Origin: Candidatus Micrarchaeota archaeon
GTDB taxonomy: Archaea > Micrarchaeota > Micrarchaeia > Burarchaeales > JBFMAP01
NCBI GenBank assembly: GCA_964632135.1
Contig: CAZWEI010000001.1
Span: 29,883 to 93,882, forward strand
Reading direction: 5' to 3'
Length of the DNA stretch: 64,000 bases
Both the position numbers and the translations under genes were made by a program. Positions 1-64,000 of the stretch are shown one piece after another; the stretch's first letter is position 1; every line of letters begins with the position of its first letter. The notes beneath the pieces were generated by a model. That model was not told the DNA's origin, made no database searches, and worked only from the letters and a program-made list of their open reading frames with translations.

Positions 1-125
1 TCAAAGGCAGAGAGGCGCGCGAGCCCTCTCTTCCCGACGAGCCTTAGCATCGCGAGCGTGAACAAATAGATGGCAGCAACGCGCAATACTTGGGACATCG
101 CGCTCTCGCCCAGCAGAAGGGACAT
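1..125 (-). CDS. DUF421/YetF-like membrane protein, N-terminal fragment (gene runs off the left edge)
   Basis: Reverse-strand translation from the ATG at 125-123 gives MSLLLGESAMSQVLRVAAIYLFTLAMLRLVGKRGLARLSAF. The hydrophobic helix followed by LRLxGKRxLxxLSxFD is typical of DUF421 N-termini. Confidence 0.4.
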   Translation of the reverse strand, partial: MSLLLGESAMSQVLRVAAIYLFTLAMLRLVGKRGLARLSAF

Positions 126-21804: not shown

Positions 21805-21817
21805 TCGTCTCACCAGG

Positions 21818-23064: not shown

Positions 23065-23079
23065 AGCTTTGCACACAAA

Positions 23080-24604: not shown

Positions 24605-24738
24605 TGCTCCGACCTGTCGCGTGTTTGGACACTCCTGCTCATGACTCGTTCATTGTGCGGGGTGTCCTTACCGCTTCACACCCTCTTCGTTAAATCCTAT
24701 ACACGCCAACAGTTTATCGTGATTACGGATTTTTCGCG

Positions 24739-25763: not shown

Positions 25764-25890
25764 TAGACCCAATCAACCAATAGGCGACGAACAGTCAAAA
25801 CCGCCAAAATCCACCGAAGGCGCGCCAGCACCACCGGCCAAGGCATGATTTAAATTAGTTAGTGGTTTACTCTTAATTTGCCTCGGGGAT

Positions 25891-26880: not shown

Positions 26881-26893
26881 AATCCATCTGCTC

Positions 26894-28345: not shown

Positions 28346-28388
28346 GTTAGTCTGGTGTAAATCGATTACTTAATCGATTGTCTTGTGT

Positions 28389-28841: not shown

Positions 28842-28856
28842 CGCGCTGCACCCCGT

Positions 28857-34673: not shown

Positions 34674-35492
34674 ATGATGACGTTTAAGCCTAACATGCGG
34701 TGGCTGAAGGATAGCGACAGCTGTGGGCAGACGGGCCCGGGCGGTGGTGGTTTTAAGAAAGGGAGCGCACCCAGCGGGGTCATGGAGTTTATAAATGAAC
34801 AGAAGTTGCAAAAACTCTCCGAAAACCTCTGGATTGGGGTTAGAACAGCGAAGGGGTGGGGGTTGGAAAAAGCGACGGCAGAGGACGTAAGGGGCCTGCT
34901 ATCGCTCATGGTCGGGATGTGCCCAAGCGAAACATTCGAAAGGGCGTTTAAGCTTGTTTGGGGCATTAAGAAAAGAGCGAGTGAAATGGATGGGGCGGCT
35001 GAGTTCAAGATAAACGACAAACGCGACAAGATAACCTTTTACATTTTCAAGAACGTCCAGCTGGATGCAGGTATGATAGTGTACAAGGCGATGATTGCAA
35101 ACGGCGGGCTGCGGCCTGACCCTGTGTGGTTTAACAGTGGTTCTGAGCCGTTTTATGGATTAATATTTGGGGATGCGCAATACGCGCCTTCGCGCGCGAA
35201 TCTCATCATTGTCGACAAGAGGGGGAAACCTATTAACGATAAAAAGTCGATGATGCTGCAGAGGACGTTTTCAAAATTTTTCGATAAGAAGGTCGCCGAG
35301 GACTTCATCGCGAAAATCGTGGAGATTGCCGAGACCGAGGGACTTAGACTCAAGCATACGTACCTGCACTACGAGGGGGTTGTAACAGGCATTCTGTTCG
35401 CAGATGCACATGGAAAAAGTGGCAGCGTATGCGTGTCAACAGAAAGAATTCAGGGGACCGGCGTTTTCAAAACGCTTCATTTTCGCGGTTGA
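34674..35492 (+). CDS. hypothetical protein
   Basis: 272-aa ORF. No recognisable motifs. Confidence 0.3.
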   Translation: MMTFKPNMRWLKDSDSCGQTGPGGGGFKKGSAPSGVMEFINEQKLQKLSENLWIGVRTAKGWGLEKATAEDVRGLLSLMVGMCPSETFERAFKLVWGIKKRASEMDGAAEFKINDKRDKITFYIFKNVQLDAGMIVYKAMIANGGLRPDPVWFNSGSEPFYGLIFGDAQYAPSRANLIIVDKRGKPINDKKSMMLQRTFSKFFDKKVAEDFIAKIVEIAETEGLRLKHTYLHYEGVVTGILFADAHGKSGSVCVSTERIQGTGVFKTLHFRG

Positions 35493-49100: not shown

Positions 49101-51854
49101 CAACGTGTGATTGACATTATCCGCGTTTTCCCAATAAACCGTTTCATTGTTGTATACGTAAATCAGATTCGGATAGGTTCCTGCCGAGGTCATGAAAAAC
49201 TTCTTCTCCTGCGAACTCGTGATGATGAGCGTGTGGTTCTGGGTGATGTTCTCGGAACGCACGACATAATCGTAGTAGTAATGAATCCCCGCTGCGACCG
49301 AAGTGCAAATCACGCGCTCTGGCAGCACTATGCCGATTGACGTGATGTTGTGCTCGACATCATCCGAGTTTATGAGGCAGATGCTGCCGCCCGGAGGAAC
49401 GCTCACGTAATTCGGCGACGGACCGAGCATCGTGAGGTTTATGTTCGTAGGAAGCGTGGGGCTTACCGTTATAGTCGCGTTTGTTCGCGTGACATTGTCC
49501 CGAACACCATAAATTTGCAGGGACTCGTTGATGAGTGTAAAGCAGACCCTGCTCTTCGCGAGAACATCGAAAACAGCAGGAAGAGGCGGCAGGAAATTTG
49601 AAGTGAGGCGCCTGTCAAGCCTGCCCGGGTTTATGAAGCACAGTGTTGTATTTGAAACAAGCGCGAGATTGGAAGGCTTGAACGCAGGGTCCTGCAACCT
49701 GACCGTATATTCGGACGTTTTGCCCGTGACGTAGACGGTCACGAACGGCGGGGTGGAGATCGTTATGTTTAAGTAATAGCCCCTGGTTCCGCCGCCGGCG
49801 CAGGATACCGTCGCGTTTATGTCGATTATGTTGTACGCCCCGCGCTGATAGTTTGGAAGCTGGAATCCGCCCATCCAATTCTGTGAGCCGCAGACACAAA
49901 TGTTGTCATCCATCTGCGGACCGGCGGGCTGGCGGTTGATTAGCGTGTTCCCGCAATCGCTTATCAAGAACCCGCTCACGAGCACGCTCATCGCTTCAGG
50001 GGGGACGTATAAATTCAGCCTGTAGGACGCTGTCCCGCTCACGTCAGTTTCGTATTGCTGGAAAGAGAGCGCGGTGCTGTTCGTGCCCGCTGCATTGATG
50101 TCGTAGAAAATGTATGTTCCAGGCGTCCTGTCCTCATATGCACCGGAATACTGGTTGAGGAAAGACGCGCGCGACTGCCAGCAGCACGAGGAGCTGTTGG
50201 ACACTGAATGGATTTCTTTCGGCACAAGCATCTCGCCTTCAAGTTTGTACACGTGCAGGGTGTGCGATTTGCTCGCGTCGGTGTTGTTGAAGCAGACGTC
50301 GTCTCCCCATATTATTCCGACCTCCTCTGGGTTCGGGCCGCCTGCCGCAAGCTCGACCTTGTTGTTGATGCTCTTAACGAATATTGAGCCGTATGTGTCC
50401 GTGTTTATGTCGCGGAAAGCGTGTGGTCCTAGTTTTTTCATCGCGCCAGGCGGAAGTGTCAGGGTTCCGCCTGCGAGTACTGTTTGGGTTATGTCAGGCG
50501 TGGGCTCGGTGTCGTCTCCGAACCATAGTTCTATAATGTGGGCCTCCTCTGCGTTGTTTCGTATCGAGATGTTCTGCCCCTCTGAAACGACAAGGTCTGC
50601 GGGCATGAACGAGTCAGCATCGAGGTAGATGAAGCCTTCTGAACTTATCGCGAGCGTCGATTCGAGTCCTGTTTTTGCGTCAGTAACCGTGTATTCTTCG
50701 GCAGGCGGCGGGGAGAAGGTGTGGTTTAGCGTGAAGTTCGATGAGCACGTGAGCGCGCTCACGTTGAGATTTTCCTTCGGGCGCGGTCCTGAGAACGCGA
50801 GGGTGTGAACCGGTATCGTCGAGTTCGCGACGTTGTCCCAGCAGATGAGCGAGCCGTCCGTTATCGTTATTTCATCAGGCTCGAAAAGCGGGTCGCCGAC
50901 AGTCATCTCCGAAACTTTTTCAAGTTTCGGCTTGCAGTATTCCCTCGCGCTGAGGAAATCGTTGAAACTCGGGCCCTGGCCGAGCATGAAGTACTGGAGT
51001 TCCTTGAAAGGGTCGCGCGTAATCGCGTACAACTCGTTCGCCCCGCATGGAATTTCTGTGAGGAGAAGACCGCCCTGCAGAGTCGCCTCGTAGTGCACTG
51101 CGCACGAGCCCCAGAACGTGCGCGTCCCAGCCCGGTCGTTGCATTCGTACGCGACCTGCGCAGAATAACCGGACAGACATTCCGCGGTGCACCCGCTGGT
51201 CGTAACCGAGGTGGGGGGCAGTACGACCATGCAGCCGTAGCCGACGCACGGGGGCTTGTAAATTCTGTATGTATACGAAACTCCAAGATGCGTAACTGTC
51301 ACATCCTCATATTCGCACGTGCAACCGTTCGGGCTCTGGTCGGGTACAAGAGGACAGCAGTAATAATGCGCGCAGTGGGAGGAGTGGTGGGCCCAACTGC
51401 AGCAAAGGAAGCAGCCTCCGCACGCGCAGCCGTGAACCTCCCAGCCCAAGAAATCCATCGTGCCGATGCCCCCGCAGTTGCAGCAGTCGTCGCACGTCAT
51501 CCTCGTCCATTTTCCGGCATCGTTGCAGGAGTCATACGCGAAACAAGCATACATCGGCGCGCCCGTTGTCCTTATGTCCTTGCAGCTGTCGCCCCATTTC
51601 GTGTTGAACTCGCGCGGATCGAGCCCCTGCCCCTTGCTGGTGTATCCTCCGCTGCATTCCCAGCGCGTGTAGAGGGGCCTCTTCGCCCTCACCTGGCACA
51701 TGCACGTGGCGTTCTCGCACGAGGAGGTCGCCTCGATTCTGACCTCAATCGTGCTCGGCACGCTTGTGCGCGGCGTCATGTAAAGGCATCCGAACAAGAA
51801 TAGGAACACAAACGCGAGGCTGAAAAAAACCAATGGTGAGATTTCCCTTTTCAT
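46188..51854 (-). CDS. 1888-aa giant secreted surface (glyco)protein with lipobox-like signal peptide
   Basis: N-terminal FLFLFGC signal; a Cys-rich N-terminal ~250 aa; a long region with dozens of N-x-S/T sequons; no C-terminal TM anchor. The + frame is unbroken for 5.6 kb. Confidence 0.6.
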   Translation of the reverse strand: MKREISPLVFFSLAFVFLFLFGCLYMTPRTSVPSTIEVRIEATSSCENATCMCQVRAKRPLYTRWECSGGYTSKGQGLDPREFNTKWGDSCKDIRTTGAPMYACFAYDSCNDAGKWTRMTCDDCCNCGGIGTMDFLGWEVHGCACGGCFLCCSWAHHSSHCAHYYCCPLVPDQSPNGCTCEYEDVTVTHLGVSYTYRIYKPPCVGYGCMVVLPPTSVTTSGCTAECLSGYSAQVAYECNDRAGTRTFWGSCAVHYEATLQGGLLLTEIPCGANELYAITRDPFKELQYFMLGQGPSFNDFLSAREYCKPKLEKVSEMTVGDPLFEPDEITITDGSLICWDNVANSTIPVHTLAFSGPRPKENLNVSALTCSSNFTLNHTFSPPPAEEYTVTDAKTGLESTLAISSEGFIYLDADSFMPADLVVSEGQNISIRNNAEEAHIIELWFGDDTEPTPDITQTVLAGGTLTLPPGAMKKLGPHAFRDINTDTYGSIFVKSINNKVELAAGGPNPEEVGIIWGDDVCFNNTDASKSHTLHVYKLEGEMLVPKEIHSVSNSSSCCWQSRASFLNQYSGAYEDRTPGTYIFYDINAAGTNSTALSFQQYETDVSGTASYRLNLYVPPEAMSVLVSGFLISDCGNTLINRQPAGPQMDDNICVCGSQNWMGGFQLPNYQRGAYNIIDINATVSCAGGGTRGYYLNITISTPPFVTVYVTGKTSEYTVRLQDPAFKPSNLALVSNTTLCFINPGRLDRRLTSNFLPPLPAVFDVLAKSRVCFTLINESLQIYGVRDNVTRTNATITVSPTLPTNINLTMLGPSPNYVSVPPGGSICLINSDDVEHNITSIGIVLPERVICTSVAAGIHYYYDYVVRSENITQNHTLIITSSQEKKFFMTSAGTYPNLIYVYNNETVYWENADNVNHTLFARTRTVDVPMDFWTGQTVSPNQRIFWDLESSVPSTVGVRQFYYEYEYPINATDNATANATSTLIIQESKAFSQDVYFIGPATESNLSLGLAVQDVFGDIGTVTLMNLKDLLNQDVLTALVFNSGGADETMRVDISGLLLDEYYGVPAGSNVSWRNIDRLSHTLAQSGSWLGSLTLPPGGTRNVSNISAGSYVLEDDVSARRYTVDVQNLSAIISLTFAPFTPSTLTTNNNELYFKNRGYKDRVLSIDYNFFNGFRFSNGQCFNFPVGSYEVYYRDIFGDHKKFNMNVLNSSEFTDTSAINLTLQQPFDKCIDDFCGDWVYDNCTDQNVWNLCWCSYSMLDKGVRYSRVIPKIINNGGAYARWFSLNGVEYHLAAGANMTFPIALTFATHVSISTCKRSSTETFYYGADIDMNDPDLTSPSPWSTLSVHEDDSVCFTGLPAGQYAWVVPVSPPNVVVPARSAVKIQLEDVGGGDYSLRICDVTPPTRMTLYVPEVSCPSTFDSSQMGCMTVDVTMPIVGGTREVSLAEMNFSQEVVTTSPGSTVCWNASGAYAGGYRLLLIQERPGGGYNASLLPTINQTSPYCWSPDVGRHTLIDCVSNNREGIVSYTYDIVVPIIDQLFEPSMNMSAKEGTRICFYNLDNRNHQLSLAPNPPPLPALISLAPNETQCITMPSVDITITDVSTGLSLLITLAPGACSGADVVPLAQKLNSYLDNNPEYMTPFWDKFYYKKYNPFGPSWPTLLTQDISIPLSNQNCIADQLKNITKECANCTTTFAVRLPGATEADIQNIMRLARNSTDMVGFIVFANTSSICEETGGECVCNASRAWDEIKNLSRFVVYNYTKPTVILSYNLEGVGVGACAGKGVGAAFAEMYEKETYQLTGAGISGIAQYCLMDGTCQPLTGNYGLTTGPPAYARKEGFEEWFKGCADYYYRSQGLTMTMCAANETNSTMCDPSRIMQLYDEYKCRAE

Positions 51855-51863: not shown

Positions 51864-52601
51864 TCATTTGTTATTGAAACTCAGCAACTCCATGCTCCCG
51901 CCGCCGCCCTCGGCGGTGGAAACTATTTTTACTGGCACTGGGACTCCGTCGGCAATCCAGACTGTGCTCGCCTCCTCTGGAAGCGAATACACGCTCGTGT
52001 TGAAAACGCCGGCGGGAACGCGCACCTCCTCGTGCCTGAGCAGTTTCGCGCCCGCGAGGTTTTCCTTGCACATCACGCCGGGTATGCCGGATACGTCGGC
52101 GCAATCAGCCTCTGTGGTGAAAGGCTGGCCCCCTGCGAAGCTCATCGAGATTTCAAGCTTTTTGCACTTGAGCGTGTTTTTCTCGAGCCACATCAGACTA
52201 TTCATGCTCGCGCTCTGCCCCTGAACCGAAGCGTTCGTTGAAATCTCGACCTTGTACGTGTCGGTCCCGTCCACGAGTTCGGTTCCTATATAATTGTACG
52301 ATGTGCGCGCCTCCTGCGTGCCTCCATATTGGCTGTCCGCCGAAACCTTGTAGGCATACGAGAACTCGGGGGTCATGTTGAACAGCGGGGTGCAGTTCAT
52401 GGGCTCGGCGCGCGGCTTTTGAGTTCCGTTCTCCGAGAGGTTTCCCACGGAGAAAACTGAAAAATTCTCACCTGCACTCGGCATCGGAGGCGGCGTATAC
52501 GAGAGCGATGAGATGAGAACCAGTATCACCCCCAGAATTATTATCGCGAGAACCGTCATCTGCGCAACAACGCTCATGTTTCTCTGAACCAGTTTTTTCA
52601 C
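51864..52601 (-). CDS. N-terminally anchored hypothetical protein (operon member)
   Basis: MKKLVQRNMSVVAQMTVLAIIILGVILVLI anchor, then an extracellular domain with sequons and a C-terminal GGGGS. Confidence 0.4.
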   Translation of the reverse strand: MKKLVQRNMSVVAQMTVLAIIILGVILVLISSLSYTPPPMPSAGENFSVFSVGNLSENGTQKPRAEPMNCTPLFNMTPEFSYAYKVSADSQYGGTQEARTSYNYIGTELVDGTDTYKVEISTNASVQGQSASMNSLMWLEKNTLKCKKLEISMSFAGGQPFTTEADCADVSGIPGVMCKENLAGAKLLRHEEVRVPAGVFNTSVYSLPEEASTVWIADGVPVPVKIVSTAEGGGGSMELLSFNNK

Positions 52602-52615: not shown

Positions 52616-53641
52616 TTACAATATTTTAAATAAACTCCTGCCCATCTCGGAAACGTCCGCGCCAAGGACAGGCGCGATCGCGCGCACGAACGCGAACGTG
52701 ACCACGAGCACGACAATGGGGTAGAAGAACGCGTAGACTATCATGCTCACCGTCTGGCCCCCGAGGCCGGACGAGCCCATCGCCGCCTCTGCCTGCGCGA
52801 CCTTTATCAGCGTCGCGAACGCGGCTGGGTCGTTCGCGCATATGTTCGTGCTCATCGTTATCTGCGGGGCCTGGCATCCGGATGGCGGGGAGCCGGAACT
52901 CATCAGAATCACTACGAACATGAGCGGATATACGATGTAAAGGCCGATGGCGAGCGCGATCATGAGCGCGCCTGCGCCGCGCGTGTACGGGAATATTCGA
53001 AGTATGATTCCTATCGGCAGATAAACCGTGAACATCGCGGTCTCAACCCACTGGAGGAGGTTGTACTGGAAGTAGAGCGCGAGCGCGAGCCACGTGAGGC
53101 TGTTCGCCTTGTAGTGCGCCTCCACGATCATGCTGTACAGCGGATACGAGAACCATTTGAAAGGAATCGGAATCCGGAGTATGAACGGCGAGACGATGAT
53201 GTCGCTCGCGAGAAGCCGCTCTATCCCCGGCTTGTACGTCTCCTTGTATTTCGACTCGACGCACTTGAGCATCGCGCGCAAATATACATAACTCGCGTCG
53301 AACGGGCTCACCTTCGCGAGCCCCGCCATGCCCGGCACGACTATGCTGCCTGCGAAAATCTCCGTCTGATTTTGGATGAGGCCGACGCCGTAGGATTCGC
53401 CTGAAACTATTGTGAAAAGAAGGACCACGAGAATAATTGAAGCAAGCACCTGCGCTAGTTCGCTCTTCACCCATCTCCTGAGGTCCGGAAGCTCGAAAAA
53501 TTTCGAGAGCATGTACGCGAGCGCGACTATGAAAATCTGTATCATTATCGCGAGGAGCGCGATCGCAATCCAGCTCGCGTCGCCCAGGACGGTTTTTCCA
53601 AGGTCAGCCGCAGTCGTGTTCCACATAACATCATCTTTCAA
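52616..53641 (-). CDS. polytopic membrane protein, paralog family (NE[LIF]YQ / LPIG-LR-FP-TR / C-terminal LGxDVxI motifs), member 1
   Basis: VKSELAQV; YLPIGIILRIFPYTRGAGALMIALAIGLYIVYPL; C-terminal PVLGADVSEMGRSLFKIL. Confidence 0.55.
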   Translation of the reverse strand: MKDDVMWNTTAADLGKTVLGDASWIAIALLAIMIQIFIVALAYMLSKFFELPDLRRWVKSELAQVLASIILVVLLFTIVSGESYGVGLIQNQTEIFAGSIVVPGMAGLAKVSPFDASYVYLRAMLKCVESKYKETYKPGIERLLASDIIVSPFILRIPIPFKWFSYPLYSMIVEAHYKANSLTWLALALYFQYNLLQWVETAMFTVYLPIGIILRIFPYTRGAGALMIALAIGLYIVYPLMFVVILMSSGSPPSGCQAPQITMSTNICANDPAAFATLIKVAQAEAAMGSSGLGGQTVSMIVYAFFYPIVVLVVTFAFVRAIAPVLGADVSEMGRSLFKIL

Positions 53642-53665
53642 TCATATCCGATCATTGTCTTTATA

Positions 53666-54652
53666 TCACACCATCCTCGTCAGCGTCGTGATGTCGACCT
53701 CCTCGCCAAGCGCGCGGGAGAGGTCGCGCACGACCGCTATTATTATTATACTATTTATGGCAGGAAGCAGGAACGCCGCGAAAATCACCGTCGCGATTTG
53801 CGATATCGCCCTGCTCAGGAAGAAATCGGCGATCAGCGATTCGATCGTGAAAACGGCGACCATTATGTTTCCTGTGACCGCGGAGACCGCGATTGATGGA
53901 ATGCTTGACTTCAGCGCCTCAAGGACGTCCCTCCAGACGGACACGCTCTCTACGCTCGTGGGCTGCCCGAGCACGACGAAATTCAGCATGAGCATGAACG
54001 GATACGCGACGAACAGGCCGATCGCGATTGCCATGAGCGCGCCGCCGAACTTCCGCGTGATTGGGAACGAGCGGCACACCACGCCGATTGGAAGGAGGAT
54101 GCTGAGCATCCCCACGTTTATTATTTTCAGCACGACAATCTGCGCGATGGTCACGAGAAGGCATATCGCCACCGCATTCACGAGGAAATTCAGTATGGTC
54201 ATTAGCGCGCTGAGCCCTGCGAAAGGCGACATTATCACCGTGACGAATGTGATTGGGAGTCCGCCGGTAAACGAGGAGAGCATCATAACTATGTTCGACA
54301 TCCCGAGAACTCCTCCGAGAACGACCGCGGTCTTGTCCCTGAGCCAGAGCAGAAAGAACTCCGCGACGTCAAACATGTTCCCGCCAACGTTCAGCCCGAA
54401 ATCGGAGAAGTTGAGCGAGCACAGCGTCGTGACGAGGAGTATGATGGACGCGAGGAAGAGCGCGGTTATGAAAACCTGGTAGAGTTCATTCTTTGCGCGC
54501 GCAACAAGCCAGGGGTTTCCCATGTACGTGCCTATCATGTAGAGCAGGGAGATTACGAAATAGGACGTGAGGATGCCTATCAAACTCAGCCCCTGCCAGC
54601 TGCCAAGCCAGTCACTGGGCGACACGCACGCGTTCGGCATTGCCATTTTCAC
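53666..54652 (-). CDS. polytopic membrane protein, same paralog family, member 2
   Basis: AKNELYQV; LLPIGVVCRSFPITRKFGGALMAIAIGLFVAYPF; C-terminal RALGEEVDITTLTRMV. Confidence 0.55.
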   Translation of the reverse strand: MKMAMPNACVSPSDWLGSWQGLSLIGILTSYFVISLLYMIGTYMGNPWLVARAKNELYQVFITALFLASIILLVTTLCSLNFSDFGLNVGGNMFDVAEFFLLWLRDKTAVVLGGVLGMSNIVMMLSSFTGGLPITFVTVIMSPFAGLSALMTILNFLVNAVAICLLVTIAQIVVLKIINVGMLSILLPIGVVCRSFPITRKFGGALMAIAIGLFVAYPFMLMLNFVVLGQPTSVESVSVWRDVLEALKSSIPSIAVSAVTGNIMVAVFTIESLIADFFLSRAISQIATVIFAAFLLPAINSIIIIAVVRDLSRALGEEVDITTLTRMV

Positions 54653-54694
54653 ACCATTCCAATCAATTCAATCAAATTCAATCGAAATCAATCA

Positions 54695-55780
54695 TCAGAT
54701 TATTTTCACGAGCGAGGTGAAATCGATCTCCGCGCCCAGGAGGGACGCGAGGGACCTCGTGAACATTATCGTGGCGATGAGGCACATAAGCGGCAGCAGC
54801 ACCGCAGCGACGACGGACATGTAGAGCATCGGCCCGAAATCCCCCTCGTAAGTCATTTCCTTCACGAACTCCGAGGGCGCGCTCCCTCCCCTGTTGAACA
54901 TGTCGTCGATTATGTCGCGCGCGTTCCCCGCCATCGCGAGCGTGAGGCTGCCACTGCATTTGTAGGTGTTGCAGTGGTCGCGGACTATCTGCTCGGACGC
55001 GAGATACGTGAGCGGAAGAACGATGTAGAAACCAATCGAAATCGCGATGAACGCGCCGCCTGCCATCCTCGTGAACGGGAACGCGCGCAGCGCAATCCCC
55101 ACAGGAAGGAAGAACGCGAACATGTAATCGCGCGCGAACTCGAGGAGCATCTCCTGCGCGCGCAACTGTATTATCGAAAGCGAGAGGATGGAGAGCGCGT
55201 AACCGAACATGTCCATGACGGGCCTGAACGCCGCGCCGGGCACAATATCAAACGTGAGCGCCTGCTTTATGTCGAACATCAGCGTCATCGAGGCGATTGC
55301 ACCCGCGAGTATGTCGAAGTGAATCATCGTCTTCACGTAGCCTGTTATCTGCTCCCGGAGGGCGCGCGCATATGCGACGGCGTGGTTCTGGAGCGCGTTC
55401 CAGTCGCCCGCGCACGAGAACGAGGAGTATGTGTAAGTGCCGGTGCCATTCAAGAAATTTGTGCTGCAGAACGCGGGGAACAGCATGGTGTTCAGGTACC
55501 AGTCCGCGGAGATGAGCATCCCGAGCATGAACGCCGTCGCCGCTAGTTGGTAGAACTCGTTGCGCGCGAACGAGATGAGGTTGTTCGAATTCACTCCGGT
55601 GCCCACCGCGTATATGAGCGCCATCACCGTGAGCATGGTGAGCAGGACTATGAGCGTCACTGTCTGCCATCTCTGGCACCAGACGGACGTGCAGTCCGCA
55701 CGAACAAGCGTTGAGAGCAGCACTAACGCGACGAAGGCGAGCAGAATTTTTCTTGCGTTCTTCATTGCCGGTTTTTTCAT
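54695..55780 (-). CDS. polytopic membrane protein, same paralog family, member 3 (Cys-containing N-terminal extension)
   Basis: ARNEFYQL; FLPVGIALRAFPFTRMAGGAFIAISIGFYIVLPL; C-terminal SLLGAEIDFTSLVKII. Confidence 0.55.
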   Translation of the reverse strand: MKKPAMKNARKILLAFVALVLLSTLVRADCTSVWCQRWQTVTLIVLLTMLTVMALIYAVGTGVNSNNLISFARNEFYQLAATAFMLGMLISADWYLNTMLFPAFCSTNFLNGTGTYTYSSFSCAGDWNALQNHAVAYARALREQITGYVKTMIHFDILAGAIASMTLMFDIKQALTFDIVPGAAFRPVMDMFGYALSILSLSIIQLRAQEMLLEFARDYMFAFFLPVGIALRAFPFTRMAGGAFIAISIGFYIVLPLTYLASEQIVRDHCNTYKCSGSLTLAMAGNARDIIDDMFNRGGSAPSEFVKEMTYEGDFGPMLYMSVVAAVLLPLMCLIATIMFTRSLASLLGAEIDFTSLVKII

Positions 55781-55788
55781 TTCTACAC

Positions 55789-57135
55789 CTACAGCAATCT
55801 CGTGAGCCCTGCTATCTCGACATCCCCGCCGAGCGCAGGCGAGAGCGCCTTTATGAACGCGAGCGTTATGAAAATGTTCAGAAGCGGGAGCGCGACAGCA
55901 GGTATCATCAGCATCGCCGTCGTGTCGAGAACGCCAATTGAGGACATTCCTGTGATTGGATCAATTGCGGGCATCCCTGTTACGGGATCGTACTGCGTGA
56001 AAAGCACCTTTGCAAAATCGCTCGACGACGGGGTTAGGTCGTGCGTGAAAAGGATGAGGTCCTTTGGCTGCGGGGTTCCGTGCGGAATAAGGTCTGTGTT
56101 GAGTTTTGGAAGAACAGGGATGACATCGACAGTGTACCAGCCGAGAACGTACAGCAGCGGGAAAATGGAGTAGAGACCGAGCGCTATCGCGAGCATCAGC
56201 CCGCCGAGTTTGCGCGTGAACCACAGCGTCCTCAGAATCAAGCCAGCCACGAGAAATATCGGGAAAACGCCGTTTTGTATGTAGAGCAGAACCTGCTCCT
56301 GGAACTTCACGCTCAGCATCGCCTTTGCCATGAAGTCCGCGGCTGTCCCGAGTTGCTCGTATAGTACGCCATAGCCCGCGAACGGCGCGATGTCGAACTT
56401 CAGCGAGAAAGGCAGGCCGAGTATGTTTATGTAAAACCCGAAATGCATCGTCTCGACGAACACGAGCTCCGCGTACATCTTCACGGTCGCGCGCGCCTGC
56501 TGTGCTATCTGCTCGTACGTGCGGCCGAGGAATGCGCGCGCGAGGTAGAAGTGGCAGGGATATGTGCAGGTTATCGTGCCGCCCTGGACCGCCTCCCATC
56601 TCCCTGCGCCCTTTCCCGCGCCCGCGCCGGTCTCGCGATAGCGATAGGTGTATGCCGTCGCATTTGGTATTATCACCCACGTCCCTGTTGCATTGGACGC
56701 GCTCCAGCCCGTCTGGCTCCCGAGTATTTTCGCGCCGAACTCCTGCGAAACCGATTCGAGAAGCGGGACGAACACGACGAACGCGCCGAAAAGTATCGCG
56801 GACACGAACGCCTGGTAAATCTCGTTCTTGATGAGCGTTTCCAAATCCCGCAACTGGAACGCGCGCGCGACCATCCACGCGGATATGAGCGCGAAGACCG
56901 CGATGATTATCACGAGCCCGCCGGCGGACTGCCACGTCCCGCCCCATCTCTGCCAAAGGCTCATCGGCGTGGGCCTGCACACGCACCCGCCGGTTGTTGG
57001 TATGCATTCGCCGGAGCAACAGGTGCAGGGCGCGATGGTGCATAACTCGCCTGTTCTCGTGCATCCAGGAGTCGTGCATCCGAACATCAGCAACAGGAGG
57101 ATTGCAAGCGAGACAATCGCCAGCGTTACTCTCAT
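55789..57135 (-). CDS. polytopic membrane protein, same paralog family, member 4 (lipobox-like signal plus Cys-rich N-terminal ectodomain)
   Basis: LLLMFGCTTPGCTRTGELCTIAPCTCCSGEC...; IKNEIYQA; FLVAGLILRTLWFTRKLGGLMLAIALGLYSIFPL; C-terminal PALGGDVEIAGLTRLL. Confidence 0.55.
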   Translation of the reverse strand: MRVTLAIVSLAILLLLMFGCTTPGCTRTGELCTIAPCTCCSGECIPTTGGCVCRPTPMSLWQRWGGTWQSAGGLVIIIAVFALISAWMVARAFQLRDLETLIKNEIYQAFVSAILFGAFVVFVPLLESVSQEFGAKILGSQTGWSASNATGTWVIIPNATAYTYRYRETGAGAGKGAGRWEAVQGGTITCTYPCHFYLARAFLGRTYEQIAQQARATVKMYAELVFVETMHFGFYINILGLPFSLKFDIAPFAGYGVLYEQLGTAADFMAKAMLSVKFQEQVLLYIQNGVFPIFLVAGLILRTLWFTRKLGGLMLAIALGLYSIFPLLYVLGWYTVDVIPVLPKLNTDLIPHGTPQPKDLILFTHDLTPSSSDFAKVLFTQYDPVTGMPAIDPITGMSSIGVLDTTAMLMIPAVALPLLNIFITLAFIKALSPALGGDVEIAGLTRLL

Positions 57136-57141
57136 TCAAGC

Positions 57142-58050
57142 TCACTCCATCAGTTGATAATCATACGTGAATACTGTCACGAGCACACGAATAAACGTGA
57201 TTGTGATTATGAGGTTGAGCGCGGGAAGAAAGACGGCCTGCGGGAGCATCATCCCGATCGTCTGGAACGTGTTGCACACTGTCCCGTGCCCCATCTCCGA
57301 GAAGACGTCGGAGAGCCCGCTCCTCCCGGAACTGCACCACTCCGTGAAACTCCTGTCCAGGCTCACCTCCTCCATCACCTTCATATCGAAAACGTACGTG
57401 AGCGGGAAGACGATGAAAAACCCTATTGCTATCGCCATAAGGTACGCGCCTGCCTCGCGCATGAACGGGACTGTCCTCAAAATGAAGCCTATCGGCAATA
57501 GGAATATGAAGAACGTGTCCTTCACGAACGAGAGGAAAAGTTTCTGGAAAAGAAGGCTCGCCGAAATGGGCGTTACGAGAAACGCGAGGGTCTCGAAAAG
57601 GTAACTCGCCGTGCCGTAGCCTGCGAGTGGAGAGAAGCAGAACAGACCCGTGCAGCTCGGAATCGCAATGCTGAACGCGGCCTTTCTCTGCGCGCTCAGG
57701 CTCATGTCAAACAGGGACTGGACAGCAGGCACCATCTTGCCCCATATCAACCCGTGGAGGTATTTGTCAGAGACCTTGAAGGGGTCTGCGCCTGCCACTC
57801 CCTGTGAAATATCGCATGAGAGCAACGCGAACGAGATGACGCCGCCTATAAGTATGCACGCGACTATCGTCTGGTAGAGTTCGCCCTTCGCCCAGAACTC
57901 CCAATCGGTGCGGCGCGTGAACTGGGAAATCATGTACACGAGCGCGACCAGGAAGAACGAGATGAGAAGGGCTAGCGCCATGAACGGAACCCAGTTCCAA
58001 TAGTCCGACTGGAATGTGCAGTAGTACGTTAGCGCAGCCATTTGGGACAC
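57142..58050 (-). CDS. polytopic membrane protein, same paralog family, member 5 (lacks the shared C-terminal motif)
   Basis: AKGELYQT; LLPIGFILRTVPFMREAGAYLMAIAIGFFIVFPL; ends ...VFTYDYQLME, six nt before the next gene. Confidence 0.5.
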   Translation of the reverse strand: MSQMAALTYYCTFQSDYWNWVPFMALALLISFFLVALVYMISQFTRRTDWEFWAKGELYQTIVACILIGGVISFALLSCDISQGVAGADPFKVSDKYLHGLIWGKMVPAVQSLFDMSLSAQRKAAFSIAIPSCTGLFCFSPLAGYGTASYLFETLAFLVTPISASLLFQKLFLSFVKDTFFIFLLPIGFILRTVPFMREAGAYLMAIAIGFFIVFPLTYVFDMKVMEEVSLDRSFTEWCSSGRSGLSDVFSEMGHGTVCNTFQTIGMMLPQAVFLPALNLIITITFIRVLVTVFTYDYQLME

Positions 58051-58071
58051 CTGTGCACACAGCTCATAATT

Positions 58072-59826
58072 TCATATGAACTCCGCAAGACCGGTTATTC
58101 TCGCCTCTCCTCCGAGAGCTGTTGAGAGCGAGCGCATCGCCGTTACAACTATTATCAAATCAAGTATTGGGAAGACGAACGCTGCGATGATGGGCTGCAT
58201 CATCCAGGGCACGGCGTCGGCGTAATAATCAAAACCGCTTCCAGCCACTTCGCCAACTCCCGGATAGAAAACGCTCGCGATCATGACAAGAACGAAAGCG
58301 ATGATTTGGATGAACGCCCACACCATGCTCCATATCCACATTATTATTGCAAAAAAGAAACACCAGGGGAACTTCCACCACTTGTCGCAGTAGTGCGAGA
58401 ACCTCGGGCCCTGGAACGCGTCGGTTATGCTCCCCATGTCGAGCATTTTCAGCGGGAGAGCGCCCCAGTATTCTTCCCGCGGTATCGGGGTAACCGAGCT
58501 GTATATCTCGTTGTTCATGACAAGGGTGAGCGGATAAACTACGTACGCGCCTATTGCGACCGCCATCAGCGTCGCGCCCAATTTCCTCGTGAGCGTGAAC
58601 GAGCGCAGGACGACGCCTATTGGCAGGAATATTTTGAACATCGTCTCTGAGATGAATTGGAGTAGGACGAACTGTCCTATCATCGAGAAGAGCGCGAGCG
58701 AAATGAGGTTCGCGCCCGTGTTTATTATATTGGAAATTATCGAAAGTCCGTAGAATGGCGAGAACGAAAAGGAGAACCCCAGGAAAATTGGGAACAGGCC
58801 TATCACCGGGGGCGGTACTGCCCCGGCGCCCCCTTCTGAAGGAGGCTTGGGGCACTGCTTCCCGATGCACGTGCCAAAGCCCGCGCCTCCTCCGAGATAC
58901 TGAATCAGACCTATCCCGAACTCCGCCTTCACTGTTTTTCCAAATGCGGCGAGGAGGTCGCCTGACACGCGGTTCGTGTAGCCCTGCGCTATGCTCATGT
59001 AGTCCTCGCCGCTGACAGTCCCAAAGTCTTGGATGACGGTGTTGGACAAAAAGACGAGGAATATTATGCTGCCCACGAACCACACGGAAACGGAAACCTC
59101 CACGAATTCCCTTCTCGCGTAAGCGTGGAGTTCAGGGGAATGGAGGAATGAGGCGACCATTATCAGCAGCGCGACTAGCATGTAGCCGATTATTAGCGCG
59201 ACGAGCGTTATCGGAACCCATGTGTTCCACGCGTCAACCGTGAGCGTGCTGCCGAGAATCGAGGACGAGAAATTCGTGCACGCGTTGTTAAAGCAGTACT
59301 GGCCGCCTGAGCATGGGCAGTCCTCGCAGCAGAAGGAGGTGTTTTCAAAATATGGCGAGCCGGAATCGCAGGTCCCGTTGTAGTTGCAGCATGGGGTGAC
59401 GAGGCGCGTGGCGCACGCTCCCCAGTGGCAGTATTTTTCTCTGCAGATTTCAGTCGCAGGGCCTATGCAGCCCGGCGCAGGCGCGCCGTTGATTCCGACA
59501 TACTCGCATTTGGAGGTCACCGCTTCCAAAGGGGCGTACACCACGTCGTCACTCGCGTTGTATAGAACGCACGTTTTGTAGCCGCATATAAAGAGCTCGT
59601 AGCACTGGCATTGGGTATCATTGTATATGCAAAAAGGCGTGTCGTCCCTGACGCACTTATACGTATCCGGATCGCAGCGCTCGAGCGTGCACGGCTCCTT
59701 GTCGTGGTCGCATTGGGTTAGGTTTGCTGAGAACGGGTCGCAGGACTCCCCGAGCGCGTGAGCGGGCTTGGCGAACAAAAACAATATCACAAATAGTAAC
59801 ACGATTGTCTTTGGCAAGGAGTTCAT
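58072..59826 (-). CDS. polytopic membrane protein, same paralog family, member 6 (signal peptide plus ~200-aa Cys-rich N-terminal ectodomain)
   Basis: More than 30 Cys in the first 200 aa; ARREFVEV; FLPIGVVLRSFTLTRKLGATLMAVAIGAYVVYPL; C-terminal TALGGEARITGLAEFI. Confidence 0.55.
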   Translation of the reverse strand: MNSLPKTIVLLFVILFLFAKPAHALGESCDPFSANLTQCDHDKEPCTLERCDPDTYKCVRDDTPFCIYNDTQCQCYELFICGYKTCVLYNASDDVVYAPLEAVTSKCEYVGINGAPAPGCIGPATEICREKYCHWGACATRLVTPCCNYNGTCDSGSPYFENTSFCCEDCPCSGGQYCFNNACTNFSSSILGSTLTVDAWNTWVPITLVALIIGYMLVALLIMVASFLHSPELHAYARREFVEVSVSVWFVGSIIFLVFLSNTVIQDFGTVSGEDYMSIAQGYTNRVSGDLLAAFGKTVKAEFGIGLIQYLGGGAGFGTCIGKQCPKPPSEGGAGAVPPPVIGLFPIFLGFSFSFSPFYGLSIISNIINTGANLISLALFSMIGQFVLLQFISETMFKIFLPIGVVLRSFTLTRKLGATLMAVAIGAYVVYPLTLVMNNEIYSSVTPIPREEYWGALPLKMLDMGSITDAFQGPRFSHYCDKWWKFPWCFFFAIIMWIWSMVWAFIQIIAFVLVMIASVFYPGVGEVAGSGFDYYADAVPWMMQPIIAAFVFPILDLIIVVTAMRSLSTALGGEARITGLAEFI

Positions 59827-59946: not shown

Positions 59947-62900
59947 ATGCGGGCGTTAGCGTTCGTTTTTGCCTGTTCGCTGTTTCTGTTTCTGTTAGCG
60001 AACCCTGCGCTCGGGCAGACGTGCGCTGTTGGGAAACTGCCCACCTACATAGAAGTTACAACCGTTTCAAACGAGAACGTTGGCACGCTGGAGGCAAAGG
60101 CGACCCTTTATTACGTTGATGATTTCAGGAAGACGACCGGCGTGCTTCCTTACCAGGACGTCTATTTTCAAAAATGCCCGTCAGGCTGCCCGCCGGGCAG
60201 CAAAATATGCGACCTGGGCTGCTGCGACAACGCAGGCGGACGTTACTGCGGCCCCTCCACACTGAGGTTCTGCCTTCCTTCGGAATGGATGTGCGACAGG
60301 GGCTGTTGTTTTGCAGATGCAAGCACAATAAAGGGCAGGACCGACAGCAACGGGGAGGCGTTCGCGGTTTTTCCAAAGGACAACATATCCGTGGTCGCGA
60401 TGTACAAGGGGGGCGACAGGTATTTCCCGAGCAACAGCAGCGGCACGTACGGCTCGAGCCCGCTCGGGAACATCACGCTGGGCGCGTGCTTCCCGCTGTT
60501 CCTCCTTCTCGGCCTCCTTCTCGTGGCGATGGGCGCCGCGGGATACAACCCCCTCGGTATGTTTGATTTCTCCGCGGTCCGCGTCCCGCGCGCGCGAATC
60601 CGTCCGCTCATCAGCTTCCAGATGAGCTCGCGCGCGATAACCGCATCACTGGCTCTGGGCGCGAAAAGGAACTTGGAAAAGGCGAGTGTCGACCTGCAGA
60701 TGCTGAAGGACTTGAAGGCCAAGCTCGGCAATGAAACCGACCCAGGCAAGAAAAAGGAATTGCAGAATAAAATCGATGGCCTAGAGAGCAAATACGGTAA
60801 ACAGGACGCAAAAAAAATCGCAGACTCTGAAAAAAAACTCAAGGACGTCGCGCGCGAGTTGCAGGAGGAGAAGAAAAAGGGGAAGAACGCCGACCCGGGA
60901 AAAATCGCAAGTTTGAAAAAAGAGTTGGACGATGAAAAGCGCAGTTTGCATCTGGAAAAAGGCAAGACTGGGCGCAGCGTTGAGGAAACCATCGAACATC
61001 TGAAGAAACAGGTTAGGTTCTTTGAGAACCTTACGAGTCCGCAGCCAGTTAAAATGGGCAAAGTAGTGGACGTTATAACCGGCGCGCCTGTCGCAGGAAT
61101 GGCTATAAGAGCGATAGGAAAAGCGCTCAAAGGGAAGAAACACGAAGAGAAAAAAACTGAAGAAGGCGGAGAAACTCAAGAGAAGATGGTCCAACGGGTC
61201 AAGACAGTCAAGGATGTAACAGTGCTCGGGAAAGCCTCTGGCACAGTTTGGAAGGGAGCGAAATTCGTCGCTAAGATGACCCTCTGGTCGTTCAAGGCCC
61301 CTTTTGCAGGGATAAAGAAATTCGGCGAGTGGTGGGACGAGTTTGCAAAGAGCAAGGCAGGCCGGGGCATCTTTAGTTTCTTGGGAATCGTAACTTTCGG
61401 CATGGCTGGAAGGAAGGATTACGGCACGAACATAAGCATTGGTCCTGTCACGTTCTACGCAGGGAGCCCAGGATACATAGAAACGGTGTATGGCTGGATG
61501 GATGCGCGGGCATTACTGATGCAGCAAAACAAGAAGGTCGTGAAACAGATAGGCGATGCTCTTGAGATTGACGGGGACGTGGTTTGGGTGACGATTGCAA
61601 GCGGGTATTTTAGCATTGGCGGCGCCGGGGCAAGAAGAGATGACGTTCTGAGAGAGGAACACAGGATTCACAAGGACAAAGATGGCAATGTCGTGGAAAA
61701 ACTGGTTTCCAGCAAGGCGACGGAAGGCAGCGGCGAGAACGTGAAGGACGTGGTGCTTTACAAGGACATGCGCAAGGACAAGGACAATAATGTTTATGTG
61801 AATGGCGTTTACGTTAGGGAGGCCGACGGCACGATTTCTGAGGTGGAGTTGAATGAGAAGGGAGAGCCGATACTCGATAGCGAGGGGAAATTCAAGAGGG
61901 TCGGCAAGCCGCTGGTGATTTATGAAACCGGAAAGAAGCACGGGCTGGTTCTGCTCGAGCCGACTGGCGTGATAGAAGCCTATCAGGGGAAGGAAGGCAA
62001 CACGTCATTTGCGCGCGCGCTTATACGCAAAGTCGTTGGAGTGCTGGGTTTCGCGGACGCAGTGGCCGGCGCATTTGTCCCGTTGCGGTACGGGATGATG
62101 AGCCGCAGAATCTATGATACATCAACAGGAACGGCGGAGATAGGAGTTGCAGAGCCAGAGGACAAAATTGTTTTCATGGCGCTGGATGCAATTGAGAGGA
62201 GCAGAACTGCTGCCGAGAGATACAAGGAAGATGTGATGGATCTCGCCAAGCATAGCAGCATGCAAGACGAGATAAGAAGGATACTTGATGACAAAACGCT
62301 CGCGCCGAATGAAAAATTTGAAGCGCTCAGCACGCTGCTGAAACGGGCCTATGAAAAGAAAGCGCCTCCTGAGGACAGAGGAAAAACCATACTGAGAAAA
62401 ATATTTACTGGCGAAGGCAGCAAGCAGGAGGATGAGGAGGAGGACGTTAAAATACTCACAAAGATACTGACGCGATACAGGTGGATGATGGAAGCCGAAT
62501 CCAGCGCGAGTATGGGCCAGGACCACCTTGAGATGATAAACGCGATGAGCGTGAGGCGCGCGAGGCTTCAGAAGGGCGATAGGGAGATAGATGAAGCAAA
62601 GGAAAAGCTTGCTGACGCGAGCAAGTCATTTGGGTTATCCGTGCCGGAAGCGTGGGAAGTCCTCTACGACAACCTAGGCGAGCACAGAAAAAAAATAACC
62701 GAGAAAAGCGAGGCGCTGAAGAAGGACGCGACTGCGAAGGAGAGCAAGAAACTCGACGAAAAGACAAAAGAAATAATGCAGAAATTAGATGAGTATGTGA
62801 ACACTGTTCGCAGGAACTACGCTGACAACGAGTTCCAGGCCGGCGTTGCTCTTGGACTTATCTATGTGACTTCAAAACGCATAGATGAGATCGACAAGAA

Positions 62901-64000
62901 GATCAAAAAAGAAGATGATGAGGACAATAAAAACGCGCTTAGGAATGAGAGGGAGCAATGGGATAACCTGCAGGATTTTGTTTATGAGTTCAAGCCTAGC
63001 GGAGAGCGGACCGCGAGCATCTCCGCGCTGTTGAAGTCAGTTGTTGAGGGAAAAGACGGCAGGGATAAGCTCACGGCCAAAAGGGATGATCTCACGGCTG
63101 AAGTGGAGAAGTACAAAAAGGAGGTTTACTCGGTCGAGGATGCGTATTACGGTGTGGCTAGGGTGGACGCCATCAGGACTGCAAAAGAAGGGGGGATTGA
63201 AAAAATTGATGAGTTAAGAGAAACATCCGCGAAGACCGGAAATGAAAACGAATCGAAGTTGTTGAGGACGTTGGAGATTGACGGGCTGAGGAAAAAGGCG
63301 GTTGATACTGGAAATCTGAAAGAAAACGAACTGAAGTTATTGACGAAATTGGGGATCGAGGAACTTGACGAACGCAGGAGAGCGGCAAGAGACGCGGGAA
63401 CGCCAAGTGAACTCGTTTTATTGACTGAGTCGGAGATTTCTGATCTTAGGGGGTTAGCTGTGAGTAAGGAAAGATTGGAAGAGGACAAGCTTAAACTTTT
63501 GACTGAGTCGGAAGGGAGGCTGGAAAAGGAGTTGCTAAACCCTCGACTACCGGAGTCCGTGCCTCGTAGGGACGTGGAAGAATACGTTCTTCTTTCCGAG
63601 AATAAGATGGGGGAAGCCTGCAACACGTTTAAAGAAACATTCGGAATTGAACCGACGCCCGAAAACGTAAATGCAATGTACGAAGAACTCGCCAACCAGC
63701 CCAGCATGGAGCAGATTCTTGCAATGCGCGCGTATCCGCAGATTAAGGGGGCCATGGATGAGACGCGTTCTATGCTAACCGAGGGTCTTGACAAAGCGGG
63801 ATATTTCGACGAATTCAAGAAAAACCCGGGGCTACTTTCAGAAAATGACGGCTATAGATATGAGGAGAGTAAAGACAAGTACAAAGAAGAAGAAGCGGAA
63901 AACCAGCACTTCGACGGTATCTTCAACCCGGAGGAGCCTGGCGCGCTGTTCTACAATGCAATCGAGTTGCTTGAGCAGGAGGAGATGGATCCTGAGAAGA
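59947..64000 (+). CDS. giant membrane-anchored coiled-coil protein (more than 1350 aa, 3' end beyond the window): signal peptide, Cys-rich ectodomain, single TM, long repetitive charged coiled-coil region
   Basis: The + frame is open from the ATG at 59947 to the window end (4054 nt). MRALAFVFACSLFLFLLANPALG signal; about 160-aa Cys-rich region; TM LGACFPLFLLLGLLLVAMGAAGY; then K/E-rich heptad-like sequence with internal repeats (ENESKLLRTLEIDGL / ENELKLLTKLGIEEL / ELVLLTESEISDL / KLKLLTESEGRLEKEL). Not in the ORF track because no stop occurs in the window. Confidence 0.55.
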   Translation, partial: MRALAFVFACSLFLFLLANPALGQTCAVGKLPTYIEVTTVSNENVGTLEAKATLYYVDDFRKTTGVLPYQDVYFQKCPSGCPPGSKICDLGCCDNAGGRYCGPSTLRFCLPSEWMCDRGCCFADASTIKGRTDSNGEAFAVFPKDNISVVAMYKGGDRYFPSNSSGTYGSSPLGNITLGACFPLFLLLGLLLVAMGAAGYNPLGMFDFSAVRVPRARIRPLISFQMSSRAITASLALGAKRNLEKASVDLQMLKDLKAKLGNETDPGKKKELQNKIDGLESKYGKQDAKKIADSEKKLKDVARELQEEKKKGKNADPGKIASLKKELDDEKRSLHLEKGKTGRSVEETIEHLKKQVRFFENLTSPQPVKMGKVVDVITGAPVAGMAIRAIGKALKGKKHEEKKTEEGGETQEKMVQRVKTVKDVTVLGKASGTVWKGAKFVAKMTLWSFKAPFAGIKKFGEWWDEFAKSKAGRGIFSFLGIVTFGMAGRKDYGTNISIGPVTFYAGSPGYIETVYGWMDARALLMQQNKKVVKQIGDALEIDGDVVWVTIASGYFSIGGAGARRDDVLREEHRIHKDKDGNVVEKLVSSKATEGSGENVKDVVLYKDMRKDKDNNVYVNGVYVREADGTISEVELNEKGEPILDSEGKFKRVGKPLVIYETGKKHGLVLLEPTGVIEAYQGKEGNTSFARALIRKVVGVLGFADAVAGAFVPLRYGMMSRRIYDTSTGTAEIGVAEPEDKIVFMALDAIERSRTAAERYKEDVMDLAKHSSMQDEIRRILDDKTLAPNEKFEALSTLLKRAYEKKAPPEDRGKTILRKIFTGEGSKQEDEEEDVKILTKILTRYRWMMEAESSASMGQDHLEMINAMSVRRARLQKGDREIDEAKEKLADASKSFGLSVPEAWEVLYDNLGEHRKKITEKSEALKKDATAKESKKLDEKTKEIMQKLDEYVNTVRRNYADNEFQAGVALGLIYVTSKRIDEIDKKIKKEDDEDNKNALRNEREQWDNLQDFVYEFKPSGERTASISALLKSVVEGKDGRDKLTAKRDDLTAEVEKYKKEVYSVEDAYYGVARVDAIRTAKEGGIEKIDELRETSAKTGNENESKLLRTLEIDGLRKKAVDTGNLKENELKLLTKLGIEELDERRRAARDAGTPSELVLLTESEISDLRGLAVSKERLEEDKLKLLTESEGRLEKELLNPRLPESVPRRDVEEYVLLSENKMGEACNTFKETFGIEPTPENVNAMYEELANQPSMEQILAMRAYPQIKGAMDETRSMLTEGLDKAGYFDEFKKNPGLLSENDGYRYEESKDKYKEEEAENQHFDGIFNPEEPGALFYNAIELLEQEEMDPEK

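Follow-up and report, generated by a model that had tools for sequence, protein, structure and literature searches.

Polytopic membrane proteins homologous to VirB6 are known in archaea from the Ced system of Sulfolobales (CedA and CedE) and the Ted system of Thermoproteales (TedA), where they are encoded beside a VirB2-like pilin and a HerA/VirB4-like ATPase. CedE has five transmembrane (TM) helices, and Sulfolobales possess a pair of ATPases, CedB and CedD (PMC11868833). CedA and TedA share 13% identity and have been linked to each other and to VirB6 by HHpred profile-profile comparison only (PMC9905601). The VirB6 protein of R388, TrwI, comprises seven long α-helices, five of them mostly hydrophobic, and VirB2 assembles on the base formed by the VirB6 pentamer (PMC9259494). 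Here we describe an array of six tandem paralogs, W1 to W6 in transcription order, in a stretch of 64,000 nucleotides from a Candidatus Micrarchaeota archaeon (GenBank assembly GCA_964632135.1, contig CAZWEI010000001.1, positions 29,883 to 93,882 of the forward strand; hereafter the window). We consider it likely that the six proteins are anciently diverged subunits of a VirB6/CedA-like inner-membrane platform belonging to a Micrarchaeota-wide, chromosomal apparatus of the Ced/Ted kind that derives from type IV secretion systems (T4SS). A first-pass annotation of the window had likened the array to secretion machines such as the VirB6 arrays of Rickettsiales. This analogy proved apt: the family occupies the VirB6/CedA position beside a VirB2-like pilin and a CedB/VirB4-like ATPase in related genomes and has weak matches to CedA and CedE.

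The six-gene array and its protein family

The array spans positions 52616-59826 on the minus strand and consists of six co-directional open reading frames (ORFs), whose boundaries agree exactly with the first-pass annotation. W1 (58072..59826; 584 amino acids, aa), W2 (57142..58050; 302 aa, the shortest), W3 (55789..57135; 448 aa), W4 (54695..55780; 361 aa, with a signal peptide), W5 (53666..54652; 328 aa, the most compact) and W6 (52616..53641; 341 aa, with a TTG start codon) are separated by gaps of 21, 6, 8, 42 and 24 nt. A family hidden Markov model (HMM) recovered W1 (E=9e-84), W2 (E=4e-79), W3 (E=4e-88), W5 (E=6e-90) and W6 (E=4e-75). All 15 pairs among the six were significant in BLASTP (58-106 bits, 23-35% identity), with E values of 3e-13 to 7e-29 that were computed against a tiny database of six sequences. 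A six-way MAFFT alignment contains 16 invariant columns, including E240, G404, R408, R414, G417 and P432 (W1 numbering). The six proteins are true paralogs. In Pfam and NCBIfam scans of W1-W6 no model covered the family, and besides a match to CedA that is discussed below only noise was returned; no Pfam family covers the shared motifs. The public protein nearest to W1 (P0001, 85% identical), from a Candidatus Micrarchaeota metagenome-assembled genome (MAG), is named 'hypothetical protein'. The initial description of six tandem paralogs of an uncharacterised polytopic family is therefore borne out.

That description also included three shared sequence signatures. In the multiple alignment all three are positional and not compositional artefacts, although the mid-protein motif is looser than it had been written. 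The first signature, (K/R)xE(L/F/I)(Y/A/V)(Q/E), lies directly after TM1 and the second, LP(I/V)G..(L/C)R.FP.TR..G, in the middle of the protein, both at conserved positions in the six paralogs; the mid-protein motif reads LVAGLILRTLWFTRKLGG in W3, VPFMREAG in W2 and FTLTRKLGA in W1. The third signature, a C-terminal tail of the form LG.(D/E)V..…L(T/V)(R/K)(L/I)(L/I), is found in five of the six. When 119 family members were aligned, G190, R200 and G203 were invariant and E56, L175, R194, A208 and P218 were conserved in at least 90% (W5 numbering). A degenerate DNA pattern of the core motif has five sites in the 64-kb window versus 0.00 expected from shuffles.

This DNA pattern also served to retrieve related loci. 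Among 185,579 species genomes scanned, at least 119 genomic stretches carry it; nearly all of the matches listed are MAGs of Candidatus Micrarchaeota/Micrarchaeia, and the complete genome CP058998.1 (Candidatus Fermentimicrarchaeum limneticum) is among them. A word-index protein search with the six-paralog alignment gave three matches, probably because its 8,000 scored candidates were for the most part unrelated and merely had short words in common. An exhaustive profile search was used instead and recovered 3,040 representatives of clusters at 50% identity (E<=1e-3), with 2,451 remaining at E<=1e-10. The family is thus large and almost confined to Candidatus Micrarchaeota. With the family HMM, 363 family genes were found in the window and 124 related loci (designated L with a number), and most often the 124 loci, though only 8 kb long, show the genes arranged in arrays of five to six. 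Judged by best hits against the six genes of the window, the order W1-W6 recurs in many genomes, with clear margins in L067, L073, L054, L030 and L109, and W1 orthologs stand first in the arrays of other genomes. This shared order argues that W1-W6 represent six ancient orthogroups rather than recent duplicates, and it suggests that they are six non-redundant subunits.

Each orthogroup has its own C-terminal tail. That of the W3 orthogroup, LGGDVEIAGLTR(L/I)(L/I), is conserved in 18 orthologs, and W6 ends in LGADVSEMGRSLFKIL. The LG.DV…LTRLI tail is missing from all 25 complete W2 orthologs of other Micrarchaeota, which end shortly past the last TM helix. In the window, the stop codon of W2 lies 6 nt before the start of W3 and no sequence is left for a tail. 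W2 had initially been taken for either a truncated protein or a functional variant. Truncation no longer stands, and tail loss is instead a conserved feature of the W2 orthogroup. A frameshifted tail is ruled out by the lack of sequence past the stop codon and by the tail-less orthologs, and the resequencing of W2 that had been proposed is unneeded because all 25 complete orthologs are without the tail.

A high-confidence AlphaFold2 model of W5 (m376170bf512b; predicted local distance difference test score 90.8, predicted template modelling score 0.83) has seven long helices and one β-hairpin, and its helices of 49-52 residues project beyond the bilayer. Only five hydrophobic segments are common to all six paralogs (W5 numbering: 19-44, 59-79, 173-195, 200-228 and 291-314). 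W1, W3 and W4 carry a signal peptide and a Cys-rich domain before TM1. In W1 the signal peptide is followed by a Cys-rich ectodomain of ~170 aa with 24 Cys and then by the family core, and W3 starts with a lipobox-like signal and a Cys-rich N-terminal part, while its TM2 is followed by a large extracytoplasmic insertion. Since signal peptides and Cys-rich domains precede TM1 in these three proteins, the N-terminus would lie outside, and we infer a five-TM core with the C-terminus inside. With this orientation the AKNELYQ loop, the TM3-TM4 turn LR.FP.TR..G and the C-terminal tail are predicted to face the cytoplasm, and variable, often Cys-rich or giant ectodomains would occupy the N-terminus and the loops that join TM2 to TM3 and TM4 to TM5. 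In Agrobacterium tumefaciens, VirB6 crosses the membrane five times, with its N-terminus in the periplasm, its C-terminus in the cytoplasm and a large loop behind the second TM segment. The topology predicted here follows this pattern, with five TM segments, the N-terminus out, the C-terminus in and inserts after TM2 (and TM4). In other Micrarchaeota, certain family genes encode proteins with very large fused extensions (853-1,603 aa; L061 1425-5819; L070 2893-7704; L094 1006-4242; L046 1-2643; L123 593-3154), and family representatives reach up to 1,683 aa.

Operon partners in related genomes and the possible relation to CedA

The genes neighbouring the family genes (F) in the related loci were clustered, and the clusters are named c0, c1, c2 and so on. 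Besides the array members, the family contains a seventh subfamily of solo genes: 28 of 28 solos have other solos as their best hit, and 262 of 264 array members have array members. The solo operons have the order c2 > F > c0 > c1. Cluster c2 (L036 7492-7887, L040 3524-3910 and 27 other loci), located upstream of the solo F and of many arrays, comprises small secreted proteins (~125 aa) that carry a signal peptide and whose two helices are hydrophobic. The top PDB match of its profile is the R388 VirB2 pilin TrwL (8s6h, E=0.0015), over nearly the full length. The c1 ATPase, present in 29 loci, has CedB (1.5e-24; also 1.5e-16) and the VirB4-like CD1110 family (1.9e-24) as its top NCBIfam matches, DUF87 and AAA_10 as Pfam matches, and HerA and VirB4 chains as PDB relatives. 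A second ATPase, c8, weakly matches CedD (2e-6). Solo operons with both a c1 of ~370 aa and a c8 of ~745 aa occur in L036 (4571-5689 with 662-2899) and in L025, L026, L079, L082, L101 and L113, and the pair mirrors CedB and CedD of Sulfolobales (PMC11868833). For c0, a protein of ~250 aa, profile matches in the PDB are limited to coiled coils. In L040, a large secreted domain and, C-terminal to it, a c2-type pilin module are united in one protein of 687 aa (4869-6932).

Some arrays have the same partners. In ~17 loci c2 and c3 precede the array; c3 (L040 2649-3380 and 15 other loci) is a conserved 243-aa polytopic membrane protein encoded directly upstream of one array clade, between the pilin gene and the first F. 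L059 and L049 adjoin each other on a single contig, with a 349-aa W6 ORF spanning their junction, and together have the order c2 c2 > six F > c0 c0 > c1. The W5 and W6 orthologs of L064 (Fermentimicrarchaeum) are followed by c0 c0 c1, and W6 of L014 by c0 and c1. At least two MAGs combine an array with a separate ATPase-bearing solo locus (L062 with L011, L016 with L083); two further MAGs pair an array with a solo F whose stretch ends before the ATPase position (L085 with L019, in which c0 comes after F, and L054 with L055). Arrays are also followed by giant lipoprotein-like proteins, either c6 and c10 or, as seen in L006, L056 and the window, a protein of ~245 aa and then a giant of ~1,850 aa. 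The neighbourhood of CedB-type ATPase, CedD and VirB2-like pilin is found in relatives only: a VirB4-family ATPase and a VirB2-family pilin are co-encoded for the family and for orthologous arrays (L059 with L049, L064, L014), and not inside the 64-kb window. Cluster c7, which also lies beside arrays, was rejected as a partner; it is leucyl-tRNA synthetase and marks the chromosomal position.

Direct comparisons with profile libraries point towards CedA. W4, the only paralog of the window with a library match, aligned to the NCBIfam model Ced_CedA (NF041796) with E=8.5e-5 and 22.2 bits, residues 176-257 matching profile positions 101-183 of 259, which correspond to the conserved TM3-turn-TM4 core. 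At E<=0.01, CedA was matched by 4 of the 119 members and its paralog CedE (NF053657) by one; each other family was matched once. A Pfam scan of the 119 members at E<=1 returned two weak matches to T4SS_pilin and one to TcpE, too weak for use. Searched against PDB sequences, the family profile found no VirB6 and only TM noise from ABC transporters at E~0.03. An hhalign comparison of the c2 pilin profile with the N-terminus of the family gave P=0.021, too weak to claim, and echoes the relation between the CedA N-terminus and CedA1 (PMC9905601). Overall, the direct evidence for a relationship with VirB6 and CedA is weak but points one way; it may serve as a lead and not as proof, and homology is unproven.

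Gene neighbourhood and competing explanations

The array is followed on the same strand by a 245-aa protein gene (51864..52601) located 14 nt downstream of W6. The protein has an N-terminal TM anchor and 8 N-glycosylation sequons and no significant match in Pfam or NCBIfam. Its homolog stands directly after W6 in L006 (216 aa, E=6e-10), and L056 has a 249-aa gene at this position. Another 9 nt downstream begins the gene of a giant surface protein of 1888 aa (46188..51854, minus strand) with a lipobox-like signal (LFGC), 3.9% Cys and 48 NxS/T sequons. It belongs to no Pfam family and has homologs at the matching position after the arrays of L006 (1828 aa, E=2.9e-42) and L056 (E=4.4e-14); a giant of cluster c6, Cys-rich and lipoprotein-like, comes after W6 in 9 other loci. 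The next gene (43723..46143, minus strand; 44 nt downstream) encodes a membrane-anchored protein of 806 aa with 16% Cys and Cys-rich repeats of the form C..SAYP.TCP.SGCCP..T.WN.TQNCCT…G.C, which has no Pfam or NCBIfam match and is counted with the cluster by position alone. After 46 nt follows a LonB-like AAA+ ATPase of 483 aa (42225-43676, minus strand; TIGR00764, 363 bits with a cut-off of 516.6), which seems to lack the C-terminal Lon protease domain and may be the last gene of the operon.

On the other side of the array, a divergent giant gene (59947..64000, plus strand; >1351 aa) runs off the end of the window. Its product has a signal peptide and a small ectodomain that contains Cys, followed by a TM helix at ~172-205 and a long Lys/Glu-rich (20.7%) region. 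No Pfam family was found for it. It is related to the upstream gene of L005 (E=7.5e-104) and to clusters c10 and c12 (E=1.6e-11 and 3.4e-8), which stand beside arrays in at least nine further loci from Micrarchaeota, in some cases upstream in divergent orientation and in others downstream. Elsewhere in the window, a c2-like match at 35153-35353 was rejected as a pilin, being an antisense ORF inside another gene. A stretch of low guanine-cytosine (GC) content (0.44-0.48) at 19798-29582 is home to genes of mobility and defence. They lie at 19798-20931 (IS605 OrfB/TnpB-like, with a Cas12f1-like TNB domain), 23080-24372 (DDE transposase), 25891-26880 (C5 DNA methylase) and 28857-29582 (Eco47II-type restriction enzyme), and a Schlafen/AlbA_2 protein and a Vsr endonuclease are encoded there as well.

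In the platform reading that we favour, the six proteins, one of each, would co-assemble into a hetero-oligomeric base. Its cytoplasmic face would dock the CedB/VirB4-like ATPase and c0, both of which would be encoded elsewhere in the genome. The outer face would carry either a VirB2-like pilus or the giant surface proteins of the neighbourhood and provide a conduit to the host cell or a device for contact with it. The conserved cytoplasmic elements would be the Glu of A-K-x-E-x-Y-Q after TM1, the L-R-x-F-P-x-T-R-x-x-G turn and, except in W2, the LG-x-D/E-V…L-T-R-L-I tail. Paralogy, gene order, the distribution of the family, the operon linkage in relatives and the fold model are what the analysis shows; hetero-oligomer formation, stoichiometry, ATPase docking, the transported substrate and the sidedness of the topology are what we infer. 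A more far-reaching version is tentative, and we would not presently expect it to hold in full. It describes a vertically inherited T4SS-derived nanomachine found throughout the phylum, in which a base of six VirB6-like subunits, a VirB2-like pilus and giant Cys-rich proteins would physically connect the symbionts with their hosts, be these Thermoplasmatales or others, and allow DNA, proteins or lipids to be exchanged, as an archaeal counterpart of the Patescibacteria T4SS.

Several observations weigh against a VirB6/CedA-like platform. CedA was matched far below its curated cut-off (22 vs 330 bits) and by only 4 of 119 members, and TM proteins are prone to spurious matches. The Pfam family TrbL/VirB6 (PF04610) was not matched by the six paralogs or any of the 119 members at E<=1, and a Foldseek search of the model against the PDB gave no match at E<=0.001 and none to VirB6. 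An hhalign comparison of the family with a 61-sequence TrwI/VirB6 alignment, built from R388 TrwI and 120 collected homologs and of low diversity (effective number of sequences 3.1), gave P=0.32. Neither a CedB/VirB4-like ATPase nor c0, c3 or a pilin gene was found in the 64-kb window, and for this genome the link to the machinery comes entirely from its relatives. The neighbours of the array in this clade are giant surface proteins and not T4SS genes, which also fits a dedicated export or anchoring role. Finally, VirB6 of R388 is a homopentamer (PMC9259494), and an assembly of six paralogs is without structural precedent.

The main rival explanation, which we regard as unlikely, takes up several of these points. 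It holds that the six proteins form a complex non-homologous to VirB6 and CedA that exports, folds or anchors the adjacent giant Cys-rich surface proteins, and that the link with pilin and ATPase reflects no more than a shared cell-surface neighbourhood. The lack of a structural or profile match to VirB6 and of an ATPase in the window would agree with it, as would the recurrence of a 216-249-aa anchored protein and a ~1,850-aa giant after W6 in the window, L006 and L056, and of giant lipoprotein-like c6 and c10 proteins after W6 in 9 other loci. However, orthologous arrays are contiguous with upstream pilins (L059 with L049) and with downstream c0 and ATPase genes (L059 with L049, L064, L014), the solo subfamily stands invariably between pilin and ATPase, and CedA and CedE are the only consistent library matches. 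We see very little probability that the proteins make up a permease for solutes or lipids, as its subunits or isoforms, which would serve nutrient uptake by a metabolically reduced symbiont. They are polytopic with conserved charged residues near the membrane boundary (E56, R194, R200), and single members have weak, scattered transporter-like matches, but no transporter family was matched by more than 1-2 of the 119 members. Moreover, helices of 49-52 residues that extend beyond the bilayer and large variable ectodomains speak against a permease, and instead of a linked substrate-binding protein or ABC ATPase the partners are a pilin and a HerA/VirB4-type ATPase.

Equally remote is an origin of the array within an integrated conjugative or mobile element serving selfish DNA transfer. 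VirB2-like and VirB4-like partners are typical of conjugative elements, and transposases and a restriction-modification island lie at 19.8-29.6 kb of the window. In contrast, tblastn found no homologs in 72,556 plasmids or 50,697 phage records, Pfam scans of the larger ORFs of the window revealed no relaxase or integrase, and the related loci share no conserved gene cluster resembling either. The GC content of the array (0.55-0.57) equals that of the flanking chromosome, and housekeeping neighbours recur, with leucyl-tRNA synthetase in 7 loci and a PurD-like gene beside solo operons. The conserved order across Micrarchaeota is as expected for vertical inheritance, like that of the domesticated Ced and Ted systems (PMC9905601). 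The tandem layout, the variable ectodomain insertions and the giant extensions of some relatives could also indicate fast-evolving, redundant surface or contingency proteins that arose by recent tandem duplication. This explanation is effectively refuted: the paralogs are only 23-35% identical and have position-specific orthologs in the same order and with orthogroup-specific tails in distant genomes, which argues that the duplications are ancient and the copies not interchangeable.

Comparison with known systems

To our knowledge, no dedicated transfer machine has been defined for Micrarchaeota, and our search of the literature turned up none that connects the phylum with Ced, VirB4, VirB6 or, in this sense, type IV secretion. 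The VirB6/CedA-like platform proposed here bears on the open question of how DPANN archaea (named after Diapherotrites, Parvarchaeota, Aenigmarchaeota, Nanoarchaeota and Nanohaloarchaeota) attach to their hosts and take material from them. If true, it would extend the Ced/Ted/T4SS lineage to DPANN archaea, define a family of more than 3,000 clusters (50% identity) that is without a database model, and provide candidates for the parts of a host-contact apparatus, namely a pilin, the six membrane subunits, the giant surface proteins and one or two ATPases. The fixed composition of six paralogs also bears on how VirB6-type platforms set the symmetry of pilus and ATPase; R388 shows a mismatch between homopentamers and hexamers.

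The array family has the same operon position relative to VirB2-like and VirB4-like genes as VirB6/TrbL proteins (PF04610) such as TrwI, with which it also shares the arrangement of seven long helices, five of them hydrophobic. TrwI, however, is a homopentamer that carries VirB5, whereas no homologs of VirB5, VirB3 or VirB8 were recognised in the Micrarchaeota loci. The VirB6 homologs of the Ced and Ted systems are likewise archaeal and polytopic, and the five TM helices of CedE (PMC11868833) agree with the five-TM core predicted here. Both systems are chromosomal, domesticated and without a relaxase, features that the Micrarchaeota system would share. More than one paralog can be required in Ced (CedA and CedE), but Ced and Ted have one or two paralogs, whereas Micrarchaeota have six in fixed order and a seventh as a solo gene. 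We know of no counterpart in CedA, CedE or TedA of the AKNELYQ, LR.FP.TR..G and LG.DV..LTRLI motifs or of the large Cys-rich ectodomains. Furthermore, Ced functions in UV-induced DNA import in Sulfolobales, and the Micrarchaeota carrying the arrays are DPANN symbionts.

Two bacterial groups offer parallels from symbiotic lineages. Patescibacteria (candidate phyla radiation) have a likewise relaxase-less T4SS of monoderm type with VirB2-like pilins, widespread in this ultra-small episymbiotic lineage and reported to be essential for epibiotic growth in Saccharimonadia (PMC12102498). It is bacterial, though, with recognisable components of the MPF-FATA (mating-pair formation) type, and six-fold VirB6 paralogy has not been reported for it. 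Tandem, diverged VirB6-like paralogs are known from Rickettsiales (rvhB6/virB6-1..4 of Rickettsia, Anaplasma and Ehrlichia), obligate symbionts or parasites with reduced genomes. Anaplasma VirB6-4 exceeds 4,000 aa (PMC7648143, PMC2653234), and the array family has members of 850-1,680 aa. In contrast to the array proteins, the Rickettsiales paralogs are bona fide members of PF04610 and an independent expansion in another domain of life, while the number and order of the Micrarchaeota paralogs are fixed throughout the phylum. A hetero-oligomeric VirB6-like base of six different subunits would, if true, be unprecedented in bacteria and archaea, the closest parallels being the Rickettsiales VirB6 arrays, the Patescibacteria T4SS and, among archaea, Ced and Ted.

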